Both the position numbers and the translations under genes were made by a program. A stretch of DNA of 64,000 bases from an uncultured Chloroflexia bacterium. Its GTDB lineage: Bacteria > Chloroflexota > Limnocylindria > Limnocylindrales > CSP1-4. Location of the stretch: NCBI GenBank assembly GCA_963713975.1, contig OY970218.1, positions 2,848,001 to 2,912,000 on the forward strand, written 5' to 3'. Of the stretch, positions 53,794 through 64,000 are shown piece after piece (position 1 is the first letter of the stretch; each line of letters begins with the position of its first letter). A model generated the notes under the pieces. That model was not told the origin of the DNA, searched no databases, and saw only the letters and a program-made list of their open reading frames with translations.

Positions 53794-55611
53794 TCACTTC
53801 CGGTTGCGCATCACGAGCACGACCGCCCCGGCACCGAGCCCGACGATCACCAGGAGCAGCACGATCGGGAGCAAGCTGCCGCCCTCGTCCGCCGGTGGCG
53901 GCGGCTCCACGGCCGGACTCGGCCGCGGAGCGGGAGAGGCCGTCGGCGCCGGCACCGGCACCGCCGTGACGGTCAGGATGACGTTCGCCTTGGCGTTGCC
54001 CTTCGTGATCACGGGCACGCCACTCGAGGTCGCCCAGAGGGTCGTGCCATCCCAGATGGATCCTCGCGCGACGTAGTCCGCGTTCGGGTCGATCGCCGCC
54101 GGGTCGTATGGGACCGAGAACGGCACCGGAACGGCCCCGACCGGGATGATCAGCTGGAAGCCGACCGTCTCGCCCGTGTCCACGCGGACGATGAGGGCCG
54201 TGCCGTACGCTTCGGGGTCACGGGCCGGGTCGAGCCCGACACCGGTGATGGTCCCAGAGACGGCGCCCTTCAGCAGGTCCGGCCGGAACGCCAGCGGCAG
54301 CTCCACGTCCTCGGTCATGGGCCACGGCACCTTGACCGCCACTCCGATGGGCGTCACCCAGGCCAGGTCGCCGTCCTGGATGCCAGCGTACAGATAGTAC
54401 GACGCACCGGCCGACACAGCCGACATCGGATAGGCCAACTCATACGGCACCGGGATCGAACCCGGGTCACGGATCGACGTGGAGGTGACGATGTTCCCCT
54501 CGTTGGGACCGCCGCTTCCCTCGATCAGAAGGACGACCGCCCTGGCATCGGCGGATAGCTCGTGGTCCTCCTTGTAGGTCAGCGTCCCCTTGATGATCCC
54601 GGTGTCGGGCGACGGGGACGGAGTGGCGCTTGCCGTCGCCTCCGCGGTGGGGGACGGAGTCGGCGAAGGTGACGGGGTCGGTGACGGGGTCTCCGTCGGC
54701 TCCGCGGTTGGCTCGGACGTCGGCTCCGCGGTTGGCTCGGACGTCGGCTCCGCAGTTGGCTCGGACGTCGGCTCAGCAGTTGGCTCGCCTGTCGGCTTGG
54801 GTGTCGCCGATGGCTTGGGAGTGGGCTTCGGCGTCGGCTCGGCCGTCGGCTCGGCCGTCGGCTTGGGTGTGGCGGTCGGGGTGGGCGCGCTGCCACTGAC
54901 CAGGATGACAGGCACCTTCACCGCCGTGACGACCGCGCCCCCCACGATGGCTGGAACGGCCTCCGGCGACGACCACTGGCGGTCGCCGTCAACAATTCCT
55001 GCGCGCACGGCGTAGGTGACCGACGGATCGACGACCCCGGGGTCGAACTGGACGGTGAACGGGATCGGCTCCTTGGCCGGGGACGGGATCGACTGGCGGG
55101 CAACCATCGTCCCCGTAGATAGGTTGACGAGGGCGGCGAAGGCGGTTGCCCCTGCCGTGAGGGCGCTCCCGTCCTGGCGAGTGATGGTCCCGCTCACCGT
55201 CGCCGTCGAGGCCGAGCTCAGCGGGGCGACCAGCACCGACAGCCCCGAGGTCGGTCCACCGGTGATCACCGGCACGGGCTCCACGCTCTGCAGCGTTCGC
55301 GAGTCGTCGACGATGCTGGCGAAGACGGCGTAGCTGTGACCCGGATCGATGGCGGCCTCGTCATACGGGACGACGAACGCGAGCGGCAGCTGGGCGCCAT
55401 CGACACGTTGCGAGCCGACGATCACGCCGGCGTCCGGGCTGGCCTGCTGGTCCACGATCGAGATCATGGCCACGGCGTTGGGGCCCAGCGCCATCTTGTC
55501 CTTGCTCACCAGCGTTCCCGAGACGGTCGGACCGGCGGCGTCGACACCAGGAGCCGGCACGAGACCCGCCAGGAGCAGCAGCGGCAGGAGGAGGACAAAG
55601 GGCTTGCGCAT
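53794..55611 (-). CDS. Surface protein with four YbaY/YscW-like domains, PT-rich linker and C-terminal membrane anchor
   Basis: Signal peptide; four repeats of (V/I)xGT(L/I)...P.PF...YD...IDP...Y...A.I.DG...PV; TM plus RNRK tail. Confidence 0.78.
   Translation of the reverse strand: MRKPFVLLLPLLLLAGLVPAPGVDAAGPTVSGTLVSKDKMALGPNAVAMISIVDQQASPDAGVIVGSQRVDGAQLPLAFVVPYDEAAIDPGHSYAVFASIVDDSRTLQSVEPVPVITGGPTSGLSVLVAPLSSASTATVSGTITRQDGSALTAGATAFAALVNLSTGTMVARQSIPSPAKEPIPFTVQFDPGVVDPSVTYAVRAGIVDGDRQWSSPEAVPAIVGGAVVTAVKVPVILVSGSAPTPTATPKPTAEPTAEPTPKPTPKPSATPKPTGEPTAEPTSEPTAEPTSEPTAEPTSEPTAEPTETPSPTPSPSPTPSPTAEATASATPSPSPDTGIIKGTLTYKEDHELSADARAVVLLIEGSGGPNEGNIVTSTSIRDPGSIPVPYELAYPMSAVSAGASYYLYAGIQDGDLAWVTPIGVAVKVPWPMTEDVELPLAFRPDLLKGAVSGTITGVGLDPARDPEAYGTALIVRVDTGETVGFQLIIPVGAVPVPFSVPYDPAAIDPNADYVARGSIWDGTTLWATSSGVPVITKGNAKANVILTVTAVPVPAPTASPAPRPSPAVEPPPPADEGGSLLPIVLLLVIVGLGAGAVVLVMRNRK
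54695..54790 (-). repeat. 4 x 24-bp tandem repeat encoding (T)SEPTAEP linker
   Basis: GTCGGCTCCGCGGTTGGCTCGGAC and variants on the + strand. Confidence 0.9.
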
Positions 55612-55736
55612 CGGACGACACCTCACGGAGATGGGCGGCGGGCGGTCGTGACTGCCCAGAGTCTACGGGACGCTCCCGGAACCGCCCGGGAGCGCACCGG
55701 GGAGGCCATGCGCCACGGACGTACAATCCGCGGACC

Positions 55737-56924
55737 ATGGCGATCTATCTCGACCACGCTGCGACCACGCCACTGCGCCCGGAAGTGCTCGAGGCGATGC
55801 TGCCGTACCTGGGTGGCACGTTTGGGAACCCGTCGTCCGCGCACACGTGGGGCCGTGCGGCCCGCGAGGGGCTGGACGACGCCCGGGAACGCCTGGCACG
55901 GGCGATCGGTGCCGATCCGCGCGAGGTCGTGTTCACCAGCGGCGGCACAGAGGCAAGCAACATGGCGCTCAAGGGTGCCGCCTGGGCCGGGCGGGCTCGC
56001 GGCGCCCGGCTCGTCACGTCGACGGTGGAGCATCATGCCGTCGGCCACTCACTGTCCCACCTGGAGAAGTTCGGCTTCGAGATCGTCGAAGTGCCCGTCG
56101 ACCGTTACGGGCGCGTCGACCCGGCCGATGTGGAGCACGCGATCACGGACCGGACGATCCTCGTCACCGTGATGCTGGCCAACAACGAGGTCGGAACCGT
56201 CCAGCCGATCGCAGAGGTCGCCCGGGTCGTCCGGGGGCACCGCGGGATCCTTCTCCACGTGGACGCGGTACAGGCCGCGCCCTGGGTGGACCTGGATGTC
56301 CACGCTCTTGGCGCGGACCTCGTCGCGCTCGGGGCGCACAAGGCAGAGGGCCCCAAGGGCTCCGGCGCCCTGTGGATCCGCAAGGGCACGCACGTCCTCG
56401 CCCAGCAGCATGGCGGATCACAGGAGCGACACCGGCGGGCTGGCACGGAGAACGTGGCGGGCGCGGTTGGCATGGCGAAGGCGTTCGAGCTGGTCGCGGC
56501 GGAGCGAGCGGCGTCCGTCGAGCGCGTTGGCGCACTGCGTGACCGCCTGGCGACAGCCGTGCTGGAGGTGGAGGGCGTGGAGCTCACCGGTCATCCGACC
56601 GAGCGCCTGCCGCATATCCTCTCGGTGGTCGTGCACGGGATCGACGGCGGCTCCGTGGTGCTGGCGCTGGATCTCCTGGGGATCGCCGCGTCCACCGGCT
56701 CCGCGTGCTCCAGCGGCTCTGGCGAGGTGAGCCATGTCCTCGCGGCCATGGGCTATCCCGCCGACGAGGCGCGGGGCGCCGTCCGCCTGAGCCTGGGACG
56801 GTCCACGACCGAGGCGGAGATCGACGAGGCATCGAGGCTCGTGCCGGAGGCCGTCCGCCGGCTCGTGGCGGCTGCCCCGCGCGTTCCGGCCGGGATCTCG
56901 ACCCCGGGGGTCACGCCCGGATGA
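55737..56924 (+). CDS. iscS: Cysteine desulfurase IscS/NifS
   Basis: [45 protein letters not shown]. Confidence 0.93.
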
Positions 56925-58093
56925 GCCGGATCCTGGTCGCGATGTCGGGTGGCGTGGACAGTAGCGTGGCGGCCGCGCTGCTCCGTGACCAGGGCCACGA
57001 TGTGGTCGGCGTCTGGATGCGCCTCCACGAAGTGGCGGACAGCACCGCGGAGTTCCGGAAGAGCTGCTGCTCGGTCGACGCCGCGGACGATGCGCGGCGC
57101 GTGGCCGCCCGGCTCGAGATCCCGTTCTACGTGATGAATCTGGAGCGCGAGTTCGGGGCCGGGGTCATCGAGCCGTTCCTTGCCGCATACCTGGACGGCC
57201 GCACGCCCAGTCCGTGCGTGGACTGCAACACGGTCGTGAAGTTCGGGGCCCTGCTGGGACGGGCGCGCCATCTCTACGACTGCGAGGCGGTCGCCACGGG
57301 CCACTACGCCCGGCGGCGGGTCATCGAGACCGCCGACGGATCGCGCGCGGTGCTTGCCCTGGCCGCCGACGAGGCCAAGGACCAGACGTACTTCCTGTAC
57401 GGCCTCCGCCAGGATCAGCTGTGGCACAGCCGCTTCCCGCTGGGCGACCTCACGAAGCCCGAGGTGCGCGAGGTCGCTCGGGGGCTGTGCCTCGCGACGG
57501 CGGACAAGCCCGAGAGCCAGGAGATCTGCTTCGTGCCCGGCGGCGACTACCGCGCTGAGCTTCGGTCCCGCGGCGGCTGGGTCCCGGAGCCGGGACCGGT
57601 CCTGGACGCCGATGGCGTTCACCTCGGAGAGCACGCCGGTGCGGCCGGCTTCACGGTCGGCCAGCGGAAGGGGCTCGGTGTCGCGATCGGTGAGCCCCGC
57701 TACGTCTCGCGCATCGATCCCGCCACGAATGCCATCGTGCTCGGCCGCCGGGAGGACCTGGAGACGCGCACGATCCGGATCGAGGGCGGAACCTTCGTCG
57801 CCGACGCGCCACCCGGGCGCCGGGACGGGGACGGCGGCTTCAGCCCCTTCCGTGCCAGGGTCCGGATCCGCCATCGAGCGCCGCTCGTGGATGCGTGGGT
57901 GCACCCCGCATCGGCAGCGGAACCGGGCCGTAACGGTCGCTGGACGGTCGAGACCGACACCCCCGTGTGGGCGGTCGCACCCGGCCAGGCCTGCGTCCTC
58001 TATGACGGCGACGTGTGCCTGGGGGGCGGACGCATCGCTGCCGCCGAGCCGCCGGTCCCGGTCCCGGCCCGGCCCGCCGAGGTGCCGGCATGA
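56921..58093 (+). CDS. mnmA: tRNA 2-thiouridine(34) synthase MnmA
   Basis: [50 protein letters not shown]. Confidence 0.95.
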
Positions 58094-58371
58094 CGATCGG
58101 GCCCGCGCTGCCGCTCGCGATCCTCGTCGGCCTGGTGAACACCGCGCTCTACGTGCTCATCCGCGGCGAGACCGGCGGCCGGCTCCCGATCACCCTCACG
58201 GCGGCCGTCCTCGGCGCCTGGGCCGGCGCCGCCATCGGTGGACGGCTCGGGGTCACCGTGCTCGCGATCGGGGACTTCGCCTTGATCACCGCCTGCATCA
58301 TGGCGTGGGTGGGCATCGGAATCGTGGCCGTCCTGGCAACGCTTGGCCCGCGATCCGGGGAAACCAGGTGA
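58090..58371 (+). CDS. Small multi-TM membrane protein (GlsB/YeaQ-like)
   Basis: ATGA-coupled to mnmA; three Gly-rich hydrophobic segments ([12 protein letters not shown]). Confidence 0.65.
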
Positions 58372-61469: not shown

Positions 61470-62732
61470 ATGTCCTTCCTGCGACGTCTCTGGGACCGCG
61501 ACCAGGCGCCGGTCCCCGCCGCGTGCACGGCGCTCGACATCGGCACCGAGTTCGCGAAGGCACTCGTGTTCGAGATCGACGACCAGGGCCACGGCACCGT
61601 CCGTGGAGTCGGCCGCCGGCGGCAGGGACTCAGCCACATGCAGTCGGGCACCGTCGCCGACATCGCCGCCGTCGTCGACAACTGCGCCGTCGCGCTCCAG
61701 GAGGCCGAGGAGATGGCCGGGTTCCGGCCGACCCAGGTCGTGATCGGGATCGCTGGCGAGCTCGTCAAGGGGTTCACGACGACCCTTACCCAGGAACGCA
61801 AGAAGCCCGAGGTCCCCATCAACGACGCCGAGCTGGTCAAGCTCATCGACAGCGTCCAGCGCGAGGCGCTCCAGGAGGCGGAGCGGTCGATCACCTGGGA
61901 GACGGGACTCCCGCACGTGGACGTGCGCCTCGTGCACAGCGCCATCGTCGGCGCGTCCATCGACGGCTACGGGCTCTCCAACCCGGTCGGCTTCCAAGGC
62001 CGCCACATCCGGATCGGCATCTTCAACGCCTTCGCACCCCTCGTGCACCTGGGAGCGCTGCAATCGGTGGCGAGCCAGCTGGATCTCGAGCTCCTGGAGA
62101 TCGTCGCGGAGCCGTACGCGGTGGCGCGGGTCCTGGGCGCCGAGCACGTGCGCCAGGCCGGCGCGCTGTTCGTGGACGTCGGAGGCGGGACGACAGACGT
62201 CGCGCTCGTCCGCCAGGGCGGCATCGAGGGCACGCGGATGTTCGCCCTCGGAGGCCGCGCCTTCACGAAATCGATCGCGGACCGCCTGGACCTGCCCTTC
62301 CCGCGGGCCGAGGAGCTCAAGGTGGACTACGCCCGTGGCTTCGCGATGCCGGAGCACGAAGCGGTCAAGGAGATCGTCGGTGACGACGTGGCGGTGTGGG
62401 CCGCCGGCGTGGAGCTGGTGATGGAGGAGCTCGCGGCCGGTGACATGCTCCCGTCGCGGATCCACCTTTGCGGGGGCGGATCCCGCCTGCCCGAGATCCG
62501 CGATGCCCTCGCCGCCGAGCGCTTCTGGAAGCGCCTGCCATTCGCGCGCCCGCCCGAGGTGGCGATCATGTCGCCGGGCGAGGTCGAGGCGATCTCCGAT
62601 GCCACGGAGTTGCTGGTGGACCAGCAGGACGTCACCCCGCTCGGGCTCGCCTGGCAGGCGATCGAGATCCAGACGTCGGAGGACCCACTGGACGCCGCGC
62701 TGCGCCGGGTCCTGCGGGCGATGAAGGTCTAG
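61470..62732 (+). CDS. FtsA/PilM-like actin-fold ATPase
   Basis: ALDIGTEFAK (phosphate 1), AEPYAVA, VDVGGGTTD (phosphate 2), GGRAFT, LCGGGSRLP (adenosine). Confidence 0.8.
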   Translation: MSFLRRLWDRDQAPVPAACTALDIGTEFAKALVFEIDDQGHGTVRGVGRRRQGLSHMQSGTVADIAAVVDNCAVALQEAEEMAGFRPTQVVIGIAGELVKGFTTTLTQERKKPEVPINDAELVKLIDSVQREALQEAERSITWETGLPHVDVRLVHSAIVGASIDGYGLSNPVGFQGRHIRIGIFNAFAPLVHLGALQSVASQLDLELLEIVAEPYAVARVLGAEHVRQAGALFVDVGGGTTDVALVRQGGIEGTRMFALGGRAFTKSIADRLDLPFPRAEELKVDYARGFAMPEHEAVKEIVGDDVAVWAAGVELVMEELAAGDMLPSRIHLCGGGSRLPEIRDALAAERFWKRLPFARPPEVAIMSPGEVEAISDATELLVDQQDVTPLGLAWQAIEIQTSEDPLDAALRRVLRAMKV

Positions 62733-62744
62733 GCCGGGATCGCG

Positions 62745-64000
62745 ATGGCCACGATCGTCTACCTCGACGCCGAGGACGAGATCACCACTGCTGCCACGCG
62801 GATCCGCCAGGCGGACGACGACAGGGTGGCGCTGGTGGTGCCGTTCGGGTCGCGCGTGGCGACCTCGCGGATCAACTTCCGGCTGCTCGCCCGCGAGGCG
62901 ACGGCCAACGGCCGCCGGCTCGACATCGTGGCGCCAGACGCGTCCGCCCGGGCCCTCGCCGCGTCGGCGGGGATCCCGGTCTTCGGCTCGGTCGGCGAGT
63001 ACGAGGCCGCGCTCGACCAGCCGGACGACGAGGGCAACATCGGGGTCCCGGTCGCCGTCGTCGGCGCCGGGGCGGCTGGATCCGTGGGTGCTGCCGCGGT
63101 GGCCGGCTTTGCCTCCACGTCGCGTCCGGATCCCGGCGCCGTCCCGGATCCCGGCGTGGCCGACGAGCGCGAGGCGGAGCTCGACGCCGTCGTCCACCGT
63201 GGTCGGGACGTGCCCGTGGTGAAGGCGCGGCGTCGCGCTCCCCGGGCCGGCCTTGTCGCCGGCCTGCTGATCCTTGCGGGGTCGCTGGTCGCCGCCGGCG
63301 CCGCGGCGTTCCTGTTCCTGCCCACGGCACAGATCAGCGTGACTCCCAGGATCGAACCGGTCGGACCCGTCGACCTCACCGTGCGCGCCGATCCCGCCGT
63401 GACGGCGGTCGACGAGGACGCCATGGTGATCCCCGCCCAGACGATCACGATCCCGGTCGAGGTGTCATCGGACTTCGCGGCGACCGGGAAGCGAACAGAG
63501 ACCACGGCGGCCACGGGCGGCGTCCGCTGGCGGAACTGCGATCCCTCCGCCTCCTACACCATCCCGGACGGCACCATCGTGAAGACCGCCGGTGGCATCG
63601 CGTTCACCGTCGACGAGTCCGTATTCCTGCCGGTTGCGGTCATCTCCGGAAGCGGCACGAACGTCAACCTCCGCTGCACCAACAGCGAAGTTGCCGTGAC
63701 GGCCGTCAAGCCCGGGCCCGCCGGCAACGTGGATGCGGGGACGATCCGGGTCGTCCCGGCGCGCTACAACCGGACGCTGATCACCGTGACCAATCCGTCG
63801 CCCACGACCGGAGGCGCGAAGGAGGAGTTCACGCGCGTCTCGACGAAGGACGTCGAGGACGCGCTGGCCACGCTCCAGGCGGACCTTGCAGCGCAGTTCG
63901 AGGTCGAGGTCGCGAACCCGGATCGGGTGCCTCCCGCCTCGACCGCCTTCCCGGAGACCGCGGTCCTCGGCGAGGCCACCCCCACCGTCGACCCGACGAC
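62745..64000 (+). CDS. Membrane-anchored baseplate J/gp47-like protein, 3'-truncated
   Basis: Own translation (absent from ORF track because there is no stop): MATIVYLDAEDEITTAATRIRQ...VALVVP...INFRLLAR, TM GLVAGLLILAGSLVAAGAAAFLFLP, then ATGGVRWRN..TIPDGTIV..F..VTAVKPGPAGNVDAGTI..VTNPSPTTGG. Confidence 0.75.
   Translation, partial: MATIVYLDAEDEITTAATRIRQADDDRVALVVPFGSRVATSRINFRLLAREATANGRRLDIVAPDASARALAASAGIPVFGSVGEYEAALDQPDDEGNIGVPVAVVGAGAAGSVGAAAVAGFASTSRPDPGAVPDPGVADEREAELDAVVHRGRDVPVVKARRRAPRAGLVAGLLILAGSLVAAGAAAFLFLPTAQISVTPRIEPVGPVDLTVRADPAVTAVDEDAMVIPAQTITIPVEVSSDFAATGKRTETTAATGGVRWRNCDPSASYTIPDGTIVKTAGGIAFTVDESVFLPVAVISGSGTNVNLRCTNSEVAVTAVKPGPAGNVDAGTIRVVPARYNRTLITVTNPSPTTGGAKEEFTRVSTKDVEDALATLQADLAAQFEVEVANPDRVPPASTAFPETAVLGEATPTVDPT

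Follow-up and report, generated by a model that had tools for sequence, protein, structure and literature searches.

In the MreB-RodZ system, a cytoskeletal ATPase on the membrane binds a bitopic protein through the latter's folded cytoplasmic domain, in a context of wall building. FtsA-FtsN and PilM-PilN, the latter part of the type IV pilus platform and known in fused form as GspL, are the other described systems closest to the locus reported here, together with the baseplate wedges (P2 J, Mu gp47, T4 gp6 and their counterparts in Afp and other contractile injection systems, CIS; family PF04865). The locus lies at the end of a 64,000-nucleotide stretch of DNA, called the window throughout, that corresponds to C1:2848001-2912000 of a single-contig genome (3.62 Mb, ~71% G+C). 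The source organism is a soil or freshwater Chloroflexota bacterium, and the names on its protein matches are Candidatus Limnocylindrales and Chloroflexota. Two neighbouring genes, whose names are also used for their products, make up the locus: gene A, an actin-fold ATPase, and gene B, a single-pass membrane protein with an ectodomain of the baseplate-wedge fold. The pair occupies a fixed position and has a nested distribution, gene A never occurring without gene B. On balance, A and B probably make up a module of two proteins across the cytoplasmic membrane, with a role in the envelope and comparable with FtsA-FtsN, PilM-PilN and MreB-RodZ. The module appears to be ordinary cell machinery of many Chloroflexota and, judged by gene order and domain layout, of Saccharibacteria. 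No functional description of the A-B pair was found in the literature searched for the pair.

Both open reading frames (ORFs) were found where the original prediction, made from the letters of the window, had placed them, with gene B starting at an ATG (62745) 12 bases past the TAG of gene A. Third-position G+C was 0.93 for gene A and 0.90 for gene B, as in real genes of this genome. Gene A matched PF14450 (FtsA) at 60.4 bits (cut-off 31.8) and scored under the cut-offs of the FtsA equivalog TIGR01174 (104.5 bits, cut-off 175.85), of TIGR01175 for PilM (28.9 bits, cut-off 133) and of TIGR00904 for MreB (28.7 bits, cut-off 365.75). The nucleotide motifs of the actin fold (phosphate-1, connect, phosphate-2 and adenosine) are invariant in 27 aligned orthologues, the invariant residues being D23-G25-T26, E214, D236-G238-G239-G240-T241-D243 and G335-G336-G337. 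An AlphaFold2 (AF2) model built from 27 orthologues, with a mean predicted local distance difference test score (pLDDT) of 84.7, was searched against 48,161 representative chains using a method independent of Foldseek. The best match was E. coli FtsA (7q6d_A; Z 36.9, root mean square deviation (rmsd) 2.8, 352 of 383 residues aligned), and FtsA of S. aureus (Z 35.5) and T. maritima (Z 33.0), three PilM entries (Z 31.4, 31.3 and 26.9), and EutJ, Hsp70s and MreB (Z about 22; MreB 21.8) were also matched. This ranking places FtsA first and PilM next, and gene A is thus an intact FtsA/PilM-type protein with a 1C insertion.

A helix spans residues 406-418 in the model of gene A, and the C-terminal 11-residue window has a helical hydrophobic moment of 0.81, the top value among 410 windows; amphipathicity of this end is maintained across the 27 aligned sequences (moment 0.58-1.06). 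The N-terminal stretch is amphipathic too, but more variable; candidate amphipathic helices had originally been proposed at both ends. When proteins of 736-2100 aa were searched for gene A, 16 matches were obtained at E up to 1e-10, all of them single-member clusters and most of them 55-88% identical to gene A and joined to alaS, B or ruvX domains. Fused A-B proteins were rejected as independent evidence, since the matches, from high-G+C assemblies, have the appearance of run-on gene calls and not of true fusions. Another protein, P0398 (791 aa, single-member cluster), aligns with gene A over 95% of its length at 45% identity and also contains protein-kinase domains (PF00069, PF07714); it is either a real fusion or a gene-calling artefact.

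Four actin-like genes of cytoskeletal type are present in the genome: two MreB genes over the TIGR00904 cut-off (C1:887185-888162, minus strand, and C1:1343829-1344800, plus strand; 479 and 476 bits), ftsA and gene A. No PilM over the TIGR01175 cut-off was found in the genome. The canonical ftsA (TIGR01174, 406.9 bits, over the cut-off) adjoins ftsZ (C1:3325413-3326366; 416.5 bits) ~416 kb from gene A, and its product is 23% identical to gene A (E 8e-15). Whether such an ftsA exists beside ftsZ had been raised with the original prediction, and its presence makes gene A a distinct paralogue, separate from the divisome FtsA and neither MreB nor PilM.

Gene B continues past the window edge to genome position 2912493 (64493 if the window numbering is extended), so that residues 1-418 lie within the window. 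Its match to PF04865 (Baseplate_J; cut-off 21.1) scored 38.5 bits for the window part (residues 249-361) and 37.1 bits for the whole protein, and is confined to positions 16-113 of the 255 in the profile. The strings IPDGT, AVKPGPAGN and VTNPSPTTGG, earlier read as baseplate J hallmarks, all occur in the protein, which matches phrog_6 of PHROGs, baseplate wedge subunit (6.2e-13), and carries the database name 'baseplate J/gp47 family protein'. An exhaustive search returned 4484 representative clusters at E up to 1e-3 and 2045 at E up to 1e-10. The AF2 model of gene B, built from 59 sequences, has a mean pLDDT of 86.9 (about 97-98 in the folded parts) and agrees with the earlier description of a bitopic protein with a cytoplasmic alpha/beta domain, one transmembrane (TM) helix and a baseplate-like ectodomain. 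The N-terminus was placed inside on the basis of the positive-inside rule: the linker ends in basic KARRRAPR ahead of the TM helix, and five K/R lie just before the helix and one just after it.

The barrel of the ectodomain matched the phiCD508 wedge 9gb2_G at Z 14.8 (rmsd 1.9, 91 residues aligned, 26% identity), and gene B matched T4 gp6 (5iv5_B) at Z 8.4 over residues 254-551; wedge matches spanning residues 250-553 have a high overall rmsd, the domains being placed differently. In Foldseek, the top Protein Data Bank (PDB) matches were the baseplate wedges of cyanophage A-1(L), phi812, phiCD508, Mu, AFP and diffocin, with E from 8.7e-9 (8kea_d, 349 columns) to 5.5e-7 and with 345-369 columns aligned to wedge proteins of 348-386 residues. 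The N-domain (residues 1-94) is the best-conserved part of gene B, with E12, T14, R21, S36, R42, N44 and L48 invariant. Its fold matches were weak and generic, the STAS domains 7lhv_A (Z 6.9) and 2ka5 (Z 6.7) being level with B12-binding and other Rossmann-like domains under the tool's noise level (Z<8), and Pfam gave no significant family for it (Chap-C, E 0.093). N-domain and ectodomain are both single-copy in the genome. In the large genomes of another family, f23, the gene B profile matches up to nine places per genome (e.g. G151:C1 753692, 2334846, 2345278, 2348015, 5512923 and 5542498), and most of these matches are without the N-domain and fall in 650-1020-aa open frames, an apparent expansion of the ectodomain family.

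Gene A was modelled in complex with residues 1-95 of gene B, and the interaction score ipSAE was 0.74, 0.74 and 0.73, compared with 0.00 for the best of three controls. The calibrated ipSAE mark, which the complex passed, is reached by 116 of 157 solved complexes and by 2 of 215 mismatched pairs. The runs share at least 97% of contacts, and the partner has a pLDDT of 88. On gene B, the contact residues are 12-15, 17-18, 21, 37, 40-44, 46-47, 50-51, 67 and 70-71; 14 of the 20 interface residues are at least 90% conserved, versus 16 of the 75 others (p 8e-5, descriptive only because the sequences are related). The contacts on gene A fall in helices 262-272 and 296-322 and in loops 58-59, 97-98 and 143-147, which by the topology of the model correspond to the 2B subdomain and the adjoining 1C side. 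In FtsA, the 2B subdomain is the site at which the FtsZ tail binds, and for FtsN and PilN the site is on the 1A-1C side; no solved structure in which an FtsA-type protein holds a domain such as that of gene B is known to us. The model supports binding of the gene B N-domain by gene A, in line with the link between the ATPase and a bitopic partner that had originally been suggested.

The distribution of the pair was determined in a phylum sample of 301 Chloroflexota genomes, in which gene B was identified using a single-sequence query at E up to 1e-5 and gene A at E up to 1e-30; the tallies of A, B and MltG include a few genomes flagged unpublished (G078, G184, G212, G266, G310). Gene A was detected in 92 genomes, gene B in 159 by the single-sequence query and in at least 169 after a profile search, and MltG in 264. 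Ten genomes had A and apparently no B, and the profile search recovered B in all ten; none of the 92 carriers has gene A without gene B. Among genomes from outside the class Limnocylindria, A is the immediate upstream neighbour of B, on the same strand, in 49 of the 52 with both positions listed (G212 and G310 left out), and in the other three, assemblies of 540-720 contigs, A and B are on different contigs. Within the class, A adjoins B in 38/40 loci, and the other two end at a contig edge. The adjacency that the original prediction had proposed to check is therefore conserved across the phylum. For the genes downstream, 59 loci (L015-L073) were chosen as gene B matches: ruvX follows B in all 58 that reach far enough, and then mltG where the locus extends.

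Gene B was found in 23/24 genomes of the genus and in 0/16 genomes of a sister family with 1.1-Mb genomes. Four members of Limnocylindria (G025, G026, G086 and G146; 92-97% complete) are without both A and B and have kept mltG. In families with B only, the upstream genes are unrelated (solute-binding proteins, plsY and a glycosyltransferase, or an aminotransferase). The N-domain was detected in 8/8 loci with A and was undetectable in 5/11 loci without A, a difference confounded by distance from the profile sequences. Of the two partners, gene B is found more widely and has the firmer position, always just before ruvX-mltG, and the original prediction needs widening, since B occurs without A in whole families and, according to published tables discussed below, the pair is also present in Saccharibacteria. 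A contig scan for relatives beyond Chloroflexota kept 80 loci, all from close relatives of Limnocylindria type. One of the 80, with a gene A copy 83% identical to that in the window, is on a contig (L089, DATHGS010000569.1, 2057 bases) from a bin labelled Candidatus Methylomirabilota; this contig is probably mis-binned. Feature-based Atlas neighbours, which are leads only, included Saccharimonadota and Peregrinibacteriota clusters for gene A (0.98) and Saccharimonadota for gene B (0.91-0.92). The presence of the pair in the candidate phyla radiation (CPR) is proposed on the basis of these neighbours and of the tables of PMC10633639.

Tables S1/S2 of that paper list, for Southlakia epibionticum ML1 (Saccharibacteria), the order mnmA-alaS-A-B-ruvX-mltG on one strand, tightly packed, with overlaps between SEML1_0656/0655, 0655/0654 and 0654/0653, the last by 1 base (PMC10633639). 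The counterpart of A, SEML1_0656 (1284 bp, 427 aa), is named 'PilM' by PROKKA and 'FtsA domain-containing' by ProtNLM and carries PF14450; that of B, SEML1_0655 (1671 bp, 556 aa), is assigned to the baseplate J/gp47 family (PMC10633639). The DPAM map of SEML1_0655 gives a SpoIIaa-like domain at 6-105, a barrel at 256-365 and then the gp6 C-terminal domain III (PMC10633639), a layout nearly residue-for-residue that of the gene B model. Both genes are flagged core and Patescibacteria-enriched, and the genome has a separate FtsA (SEML1_0174) and a separate PilM (SEML1_0104) (PMC10633639). Transposon sequencing (Tn-seq) data were called in the source by the hidden Markov model of TRANSIT at T0, T1 and T2 as non-essential (NE), growth defect (GD) or essential (ES), with the following results in the tables: SEML1_0658 (mnmA) NE, NE, GD; SEML1_0657 (alaS) ES, ES, ES; SEML1_0656 NE, NE, GD; SEML1_0655 NE, ES, ES; SEML1_0654 (ruvX) NE, ES, ES; SEML1_0653 (mltG) NE, NE, NE; and SEML1_0652 (LysM-CHAP protein) GD, ES, ES (PMC10633639). 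Normalised reads in SEML1_0656 drop from 2427 to 660 to 221 (PMC10633639). The pair appears in tables only, and the words FtsA, baseplate, MltG and RuvX are absent from the main text.

The features of the locus are collected in Table 1. Upstream of gene A lie typA, a YscW-repeat protein gene on the opposite strand, a class-V aminotransferase gene, mnmA and alaS, with no ftsZ, ftsQ or pilNO among them, as had been noted originally. The conserved block mnmA-alaS-A-B-ruvX-mltG opens with mnmA, which holds the same slot in class-level relatives (L067-L069) and in Southlakia (SEML1_0658), and whose true start is probably inside the listed ORF, because its Pfam domain starts at residue 75. The end of alaS is separated from gene A by 32 bases. 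Downstream of gene B, ruvX, mltG, an M24 peptidase gene (pepP), efp, an FG-GAP protein gene, xseA, dxs and more housekeeping genes follow; judged in part by the start of its Pfam domain, ruvX most likely starts at a GTG 100 bases past the gene B stop, and at the ruvX stop there is a 4-base overlap with mltG. Genes for a sheath, tube, spike or gp25 were not found within 17 kb downstream or 10 kb upstream. A consensus scan of the locus gave 0 promoter-like sites and two terminator-like sites, both within gene B (1.4 expected), and was uninformative for both.

Table 1. Features of the A-B locus and its conserved upstream genes (window positions)
Feature	Position	Strand	Basis or remark
mnmA (tRNA 2-thiouridylase)	56705..58093	+	PF03054 237.6 bits, PF20259, PF20258
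alaS (alanyl-tRNA synthetase), 933 aa	58636..61437	+	PF01411 602.6 bits, PF07973, PF02272
Gene A, FtsA/PilM-type actin-fold ATPase, 420 aa	61470..62732	+	PF14450, AF2 model, fold matches
Gene A residues 406-420, C-terminal cationic amphipathic helix, PLDAALRRVLRAMKV	62685..62729	+	Candidate membrane-targeting helix
Gene B, bitopic membrane protein, 582 aa in full	62745..64000 in window, runs off edge	+	ORF, PF04865, AF2 model
Gene B residues 1-94, cytoplasmic alpha/beta domain (Rossmann-like or STAS-like)	62745..63026	+	pLDDT about 97
Gene B residues 95-167, low-complexity disordered linker, poorly conserved	63027..63245	+	pLDDT 35-42
Gene B residues 168-190, single TM helix	63246..63314	+	AF2 model
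Gene B residues 252-359, beta-barrel with Baseplate_J motifs	63498..63821	+	Within ectodomain residues 194-555

Two further ORFs lie among the upstream genes. A 622-aa ORF (window 53794-55662, minus strand), between typA and the aminotransferase gene, contains four YscW lipoprotein-chaperone domains (PF09619, 162.5 bits), and a 118-aa ORF (window 58015-58371, plus strand), between mnmA and alaS, has hydrophobic stretches like those of a small membrane protein and no Pfam match, and is a candidate gene. Outside the window, at C1:3532988-3543546, the genome carries a complete-looking contractile injection cluster with a sheath, two gp19 tubes, a CIS tube with LysM, a gpD/V hub, PAAR, gp25 and a 782-aa Baseplate_J protein; it is followed by a zinc-ribbon protein with an NADase-translocation-like domain.

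In the mechanism that we consider the best explanation, gene A would bind ATP and lie on the inner face of the membrane, held there by its C-terminal amphipathic helix. Its 2B subdomain and the neighbouring loops of the 1C side would hold the cytoplasmic alpha/beta domain of gene B, which would cross the membrane once and expose, in the wall space, a baseplate-wedge-fold domain of ~360 residues. In this way, a structural scaffold outside would be coupled to an actin-like protein in the cytoplasm and to its nucleotide or assembly state, most likely in growth, remodelling or division of the cell envelope. The envelope or division role is inferred from the architecture of the pair, the mltG neighbourhood and the fitness data given in the Southlakia tables, and polymerisation of gene A and an oligomer of gene B are putative parts of the same picture. 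Of the domesticated, envelope-spanning scaffold originally proposed, the cellular module stands, as opposed to a prophage or extracellular CIS (eCIS), whereas the filament of A, the ring of B, the phage origin of the fold and the process served are carried forward here as conjecture.

Several observations weigh against this explanation. The surrounding block consists mostly of translation genes (mnmA, alaS, ruvX, efp), and the neighbourhood is therefore a weak guide to function. The alignments for the complex model were custom-built and unpaired, so the ipSAE calibration holds roughly, and the score is a model confidence, not a measurement; the predicted interface on gene A, with 10/27 conserved residues versus 119/393 elsewhere, is no better conserved than the rest of the protein. 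Identity of gene A inside the genus (87-95%) is on a par with that of canonical FtsA (81-98%), and the idea that gene A is exceptionally conserved was rejected. Whole families have B without A (B 18/19 and A 0/19 in f9; B 17/17 and A 0/17 in f20; f36 and others likewise), and some families without A keep a diverged B N-domain, from which it follows that B does not strictly need A. MltG occurs without gene B in many families (18/18 in f13, 12/12 in f16, 7/7 in f30), and gene B as a general partner of MltG was rejected on this ground. The equation of SEML1_0656/0655 with A/B rests on gene order, annotation and domain map, with no sequence comparison, and the essentiality of SEML1_0655 in the tables may include a polar effect on the essential ruvX, although insertions in the upstream SEML1_0656 were tolerated at first.

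That gene A is simply the FtsA of the cell, or a redundant copy acting with FtsZ, is very unlikely: its database name ('cell division protein FtsA'), its closest fold and its C-terminal amphipathic helix are all FtsA-like, yet it falls under the equivalog cut-off (104.5 versus 175.85) in a genome where a 406.9-bit ftsA adjoins ftsZ, it is only 23% identical to that FtsA, it is tied in every case to gene B and not to ftsZ, and in the Southlakia tables its counterpart exists beside a separate essential FtsA, SEML1_0174 (PMC10633639). A remnant of a prophage or of a contractile injection system, in which gene B would be a decaying baseplate gene, would account for the PF04865 and phrog_6 matches and for the wedge fold. 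This explanation was rejected on gene context and retains next to no probability: tail genes are absent within 17 kb downstream and 10 kb upstream, the slot of the pair is kept across the phylum, the real injection cluster lies 630 kb away with its own J protein, that J protein has no BLASTP similarity to gene B (best E 3.5), and no tail protein needs the TM helix and cytoplasmic domain of gene B. The genes that follow B (ruvX, mltG, pepP and efp) agree with the non-phage module originally described. A defence system was also rejected, as neither A nor B matched any PADLOC-DB family at E up to 0.01.

The remaining explanations accept the pair as cellular and differ in what it does. In a signalling module, the B ectodomain would sense the wall space and a STAS-like domain would switch partners with the ATPase A, with an output to translation and RNA genes or growth control and not to wall building. 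The best, though weak, fold matches of the N-domain (STAS and anti-sigma-antagonist domains, Z 6.7-6.9), the invariant S36 and T14, the dominance of the operon by mnmA, alaS, ruvX and efp, and the SpoIIaa-like label given by DPAM to the Southlakia counterpart (PMC10633639) are consistent with this. We nevertheless consider it unlikely, as a Z under 8 does not exceed the noise level stated for the tool and no kinase, phosphatase or sigma factor is found in the block. Moreover, baseplate wedge domains are structural, with no ligand sensing by them known to us, and FtsA-type proteins are known as membrane tethers, not as signalling enzymes. A and B could also be neighbours only through insertion into an old, tightly packed operon, with neither binding nor shared function; the many families with B alone, the ordinary conservation of the interface on A and the weakness of adjacency as evidence in itself point this way. 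Such chance is improbable given that A is found without B in none of the 92 carriers, that both were lost together in four class members, that B lacking a detectable N-domain comes only from lineages in which A is absent, and that the predicted complex passes with controls at 0.00 and places its contacts on invariant residues of B. A surface apparatus for attachment or secretion, or a pilus-like fibre, in which the B ectodomain would be an adhesin or platform and A its PilM-like cytoplasmic part, has about the same small likelihood. It draws on the fold match of A to PilM (Z 31.4), the PROKKA name of its Southlakia counterpart and the need for the B counterpart during growth on the host (PMC10633639). 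Against it, genes for pilN/O/P/Q, a secretin, an ATPase or pilins are not adjacent, TIGR01175 scores 28.9 bits against a cut-off of 133 with no PilM over the cut-off in the genome, the pair is common in free-living Chloroflexota, and Southlakia has a separate true PilM, SEML1_0104 (PMC10633639).

The explanation of A and B as a membrane-spanning envelope module can be taken further, although the result is doubtful: after MreB-RodZ and FtsA-FtsN, the pair could be a third bacterial case in which an actin-like protein works with a bitopic partner. Here a whole phage-type wedge would have been taken into the envelope machinery as an oligomeric, possibly ring-like platform in the wall space, with an FtsA-like polymer inside the cell to position or switch it, and the module would be an ancient shared trait of Chloroflexota and CPR needed for normal growth. 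If this is true, the few actin-like systems that connect the cytoplasm with the cell wall would gain one more, and the module would clearly exemplify an exchange of parts between phage tails and the core machinery of cells. As a character common to Chloroflexota and CPR, it would also bear on their kinship, and it would be a handle on envelope building or division in little-studied single-membrane lineages. A large part of the diversity of uncultured bacteria belongs to Chloroflexota and Patescibacteria, about whose envelope biology very little is known. In this conserved and apparently important pair, a cytoskeletal ATPase is joined by a fold that is otherwise found in phage tails, and the pair is directly testable, since Southlakia epibionticum is genetically tractable and Tn-seq data exist.

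Compared with the known systems, the A-B pair is a member of none of FtsA-FtsN, PilM-PilN and MreB-RodZ. Gene A shares with FtsA the actin fold with a 1C insertion in place of 1B and the C-terminal amphipathic helix, and it is likewise predicted to hold the cytoplasmic part of a single-pass protein with its bulk outside. It differs in scoring under the equivalog cut-off and in not lying beside ftsZ; gene B offers a folded 94-residue domain instead of a short peptide, binding is predicted at the 2B side and not in the 1A-1C cleft, the site for FtsN, and the ectodomain has the baseplate-wedge fold and is not a SPOR domain. With PilM-PilN, the locus has in common a fold of A near that of PilM (Z 31.4, 31.3) and a downstream bitopic partner, but there are no pilO/P/Q or pilin genes nearby, TIGR01175 is far under its cut-off, and the ectodomain is unrelated to PilN. 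Relative to MreB-RodZ, gene A is FtsA-like and not MreB-like (MreB Z 21.8) in a genome that already has two MreB genes, and the cytoplasmic domain of RodZ is a helix-turn-helix, whereas that of gene B is alpha/beta. Gene B shares with the baseplate wedges the barrel with its PG..GN and TNP...GG motifs and the later domains, over about 350 columns, but unlike them it is anchored in the membrane by an N-terminal TM helix, has a cytoplasmic domain, lies at a fixed housekeeping locus without gp25, gp7/I, hub, tube or sheath partners nearby, and is without sequence similarity to the J protein of the genome's own CIS. The pair in Southlakia, from a different phylum, has in the published tables the same gene order, similar sizes and, for B, the same domain map.

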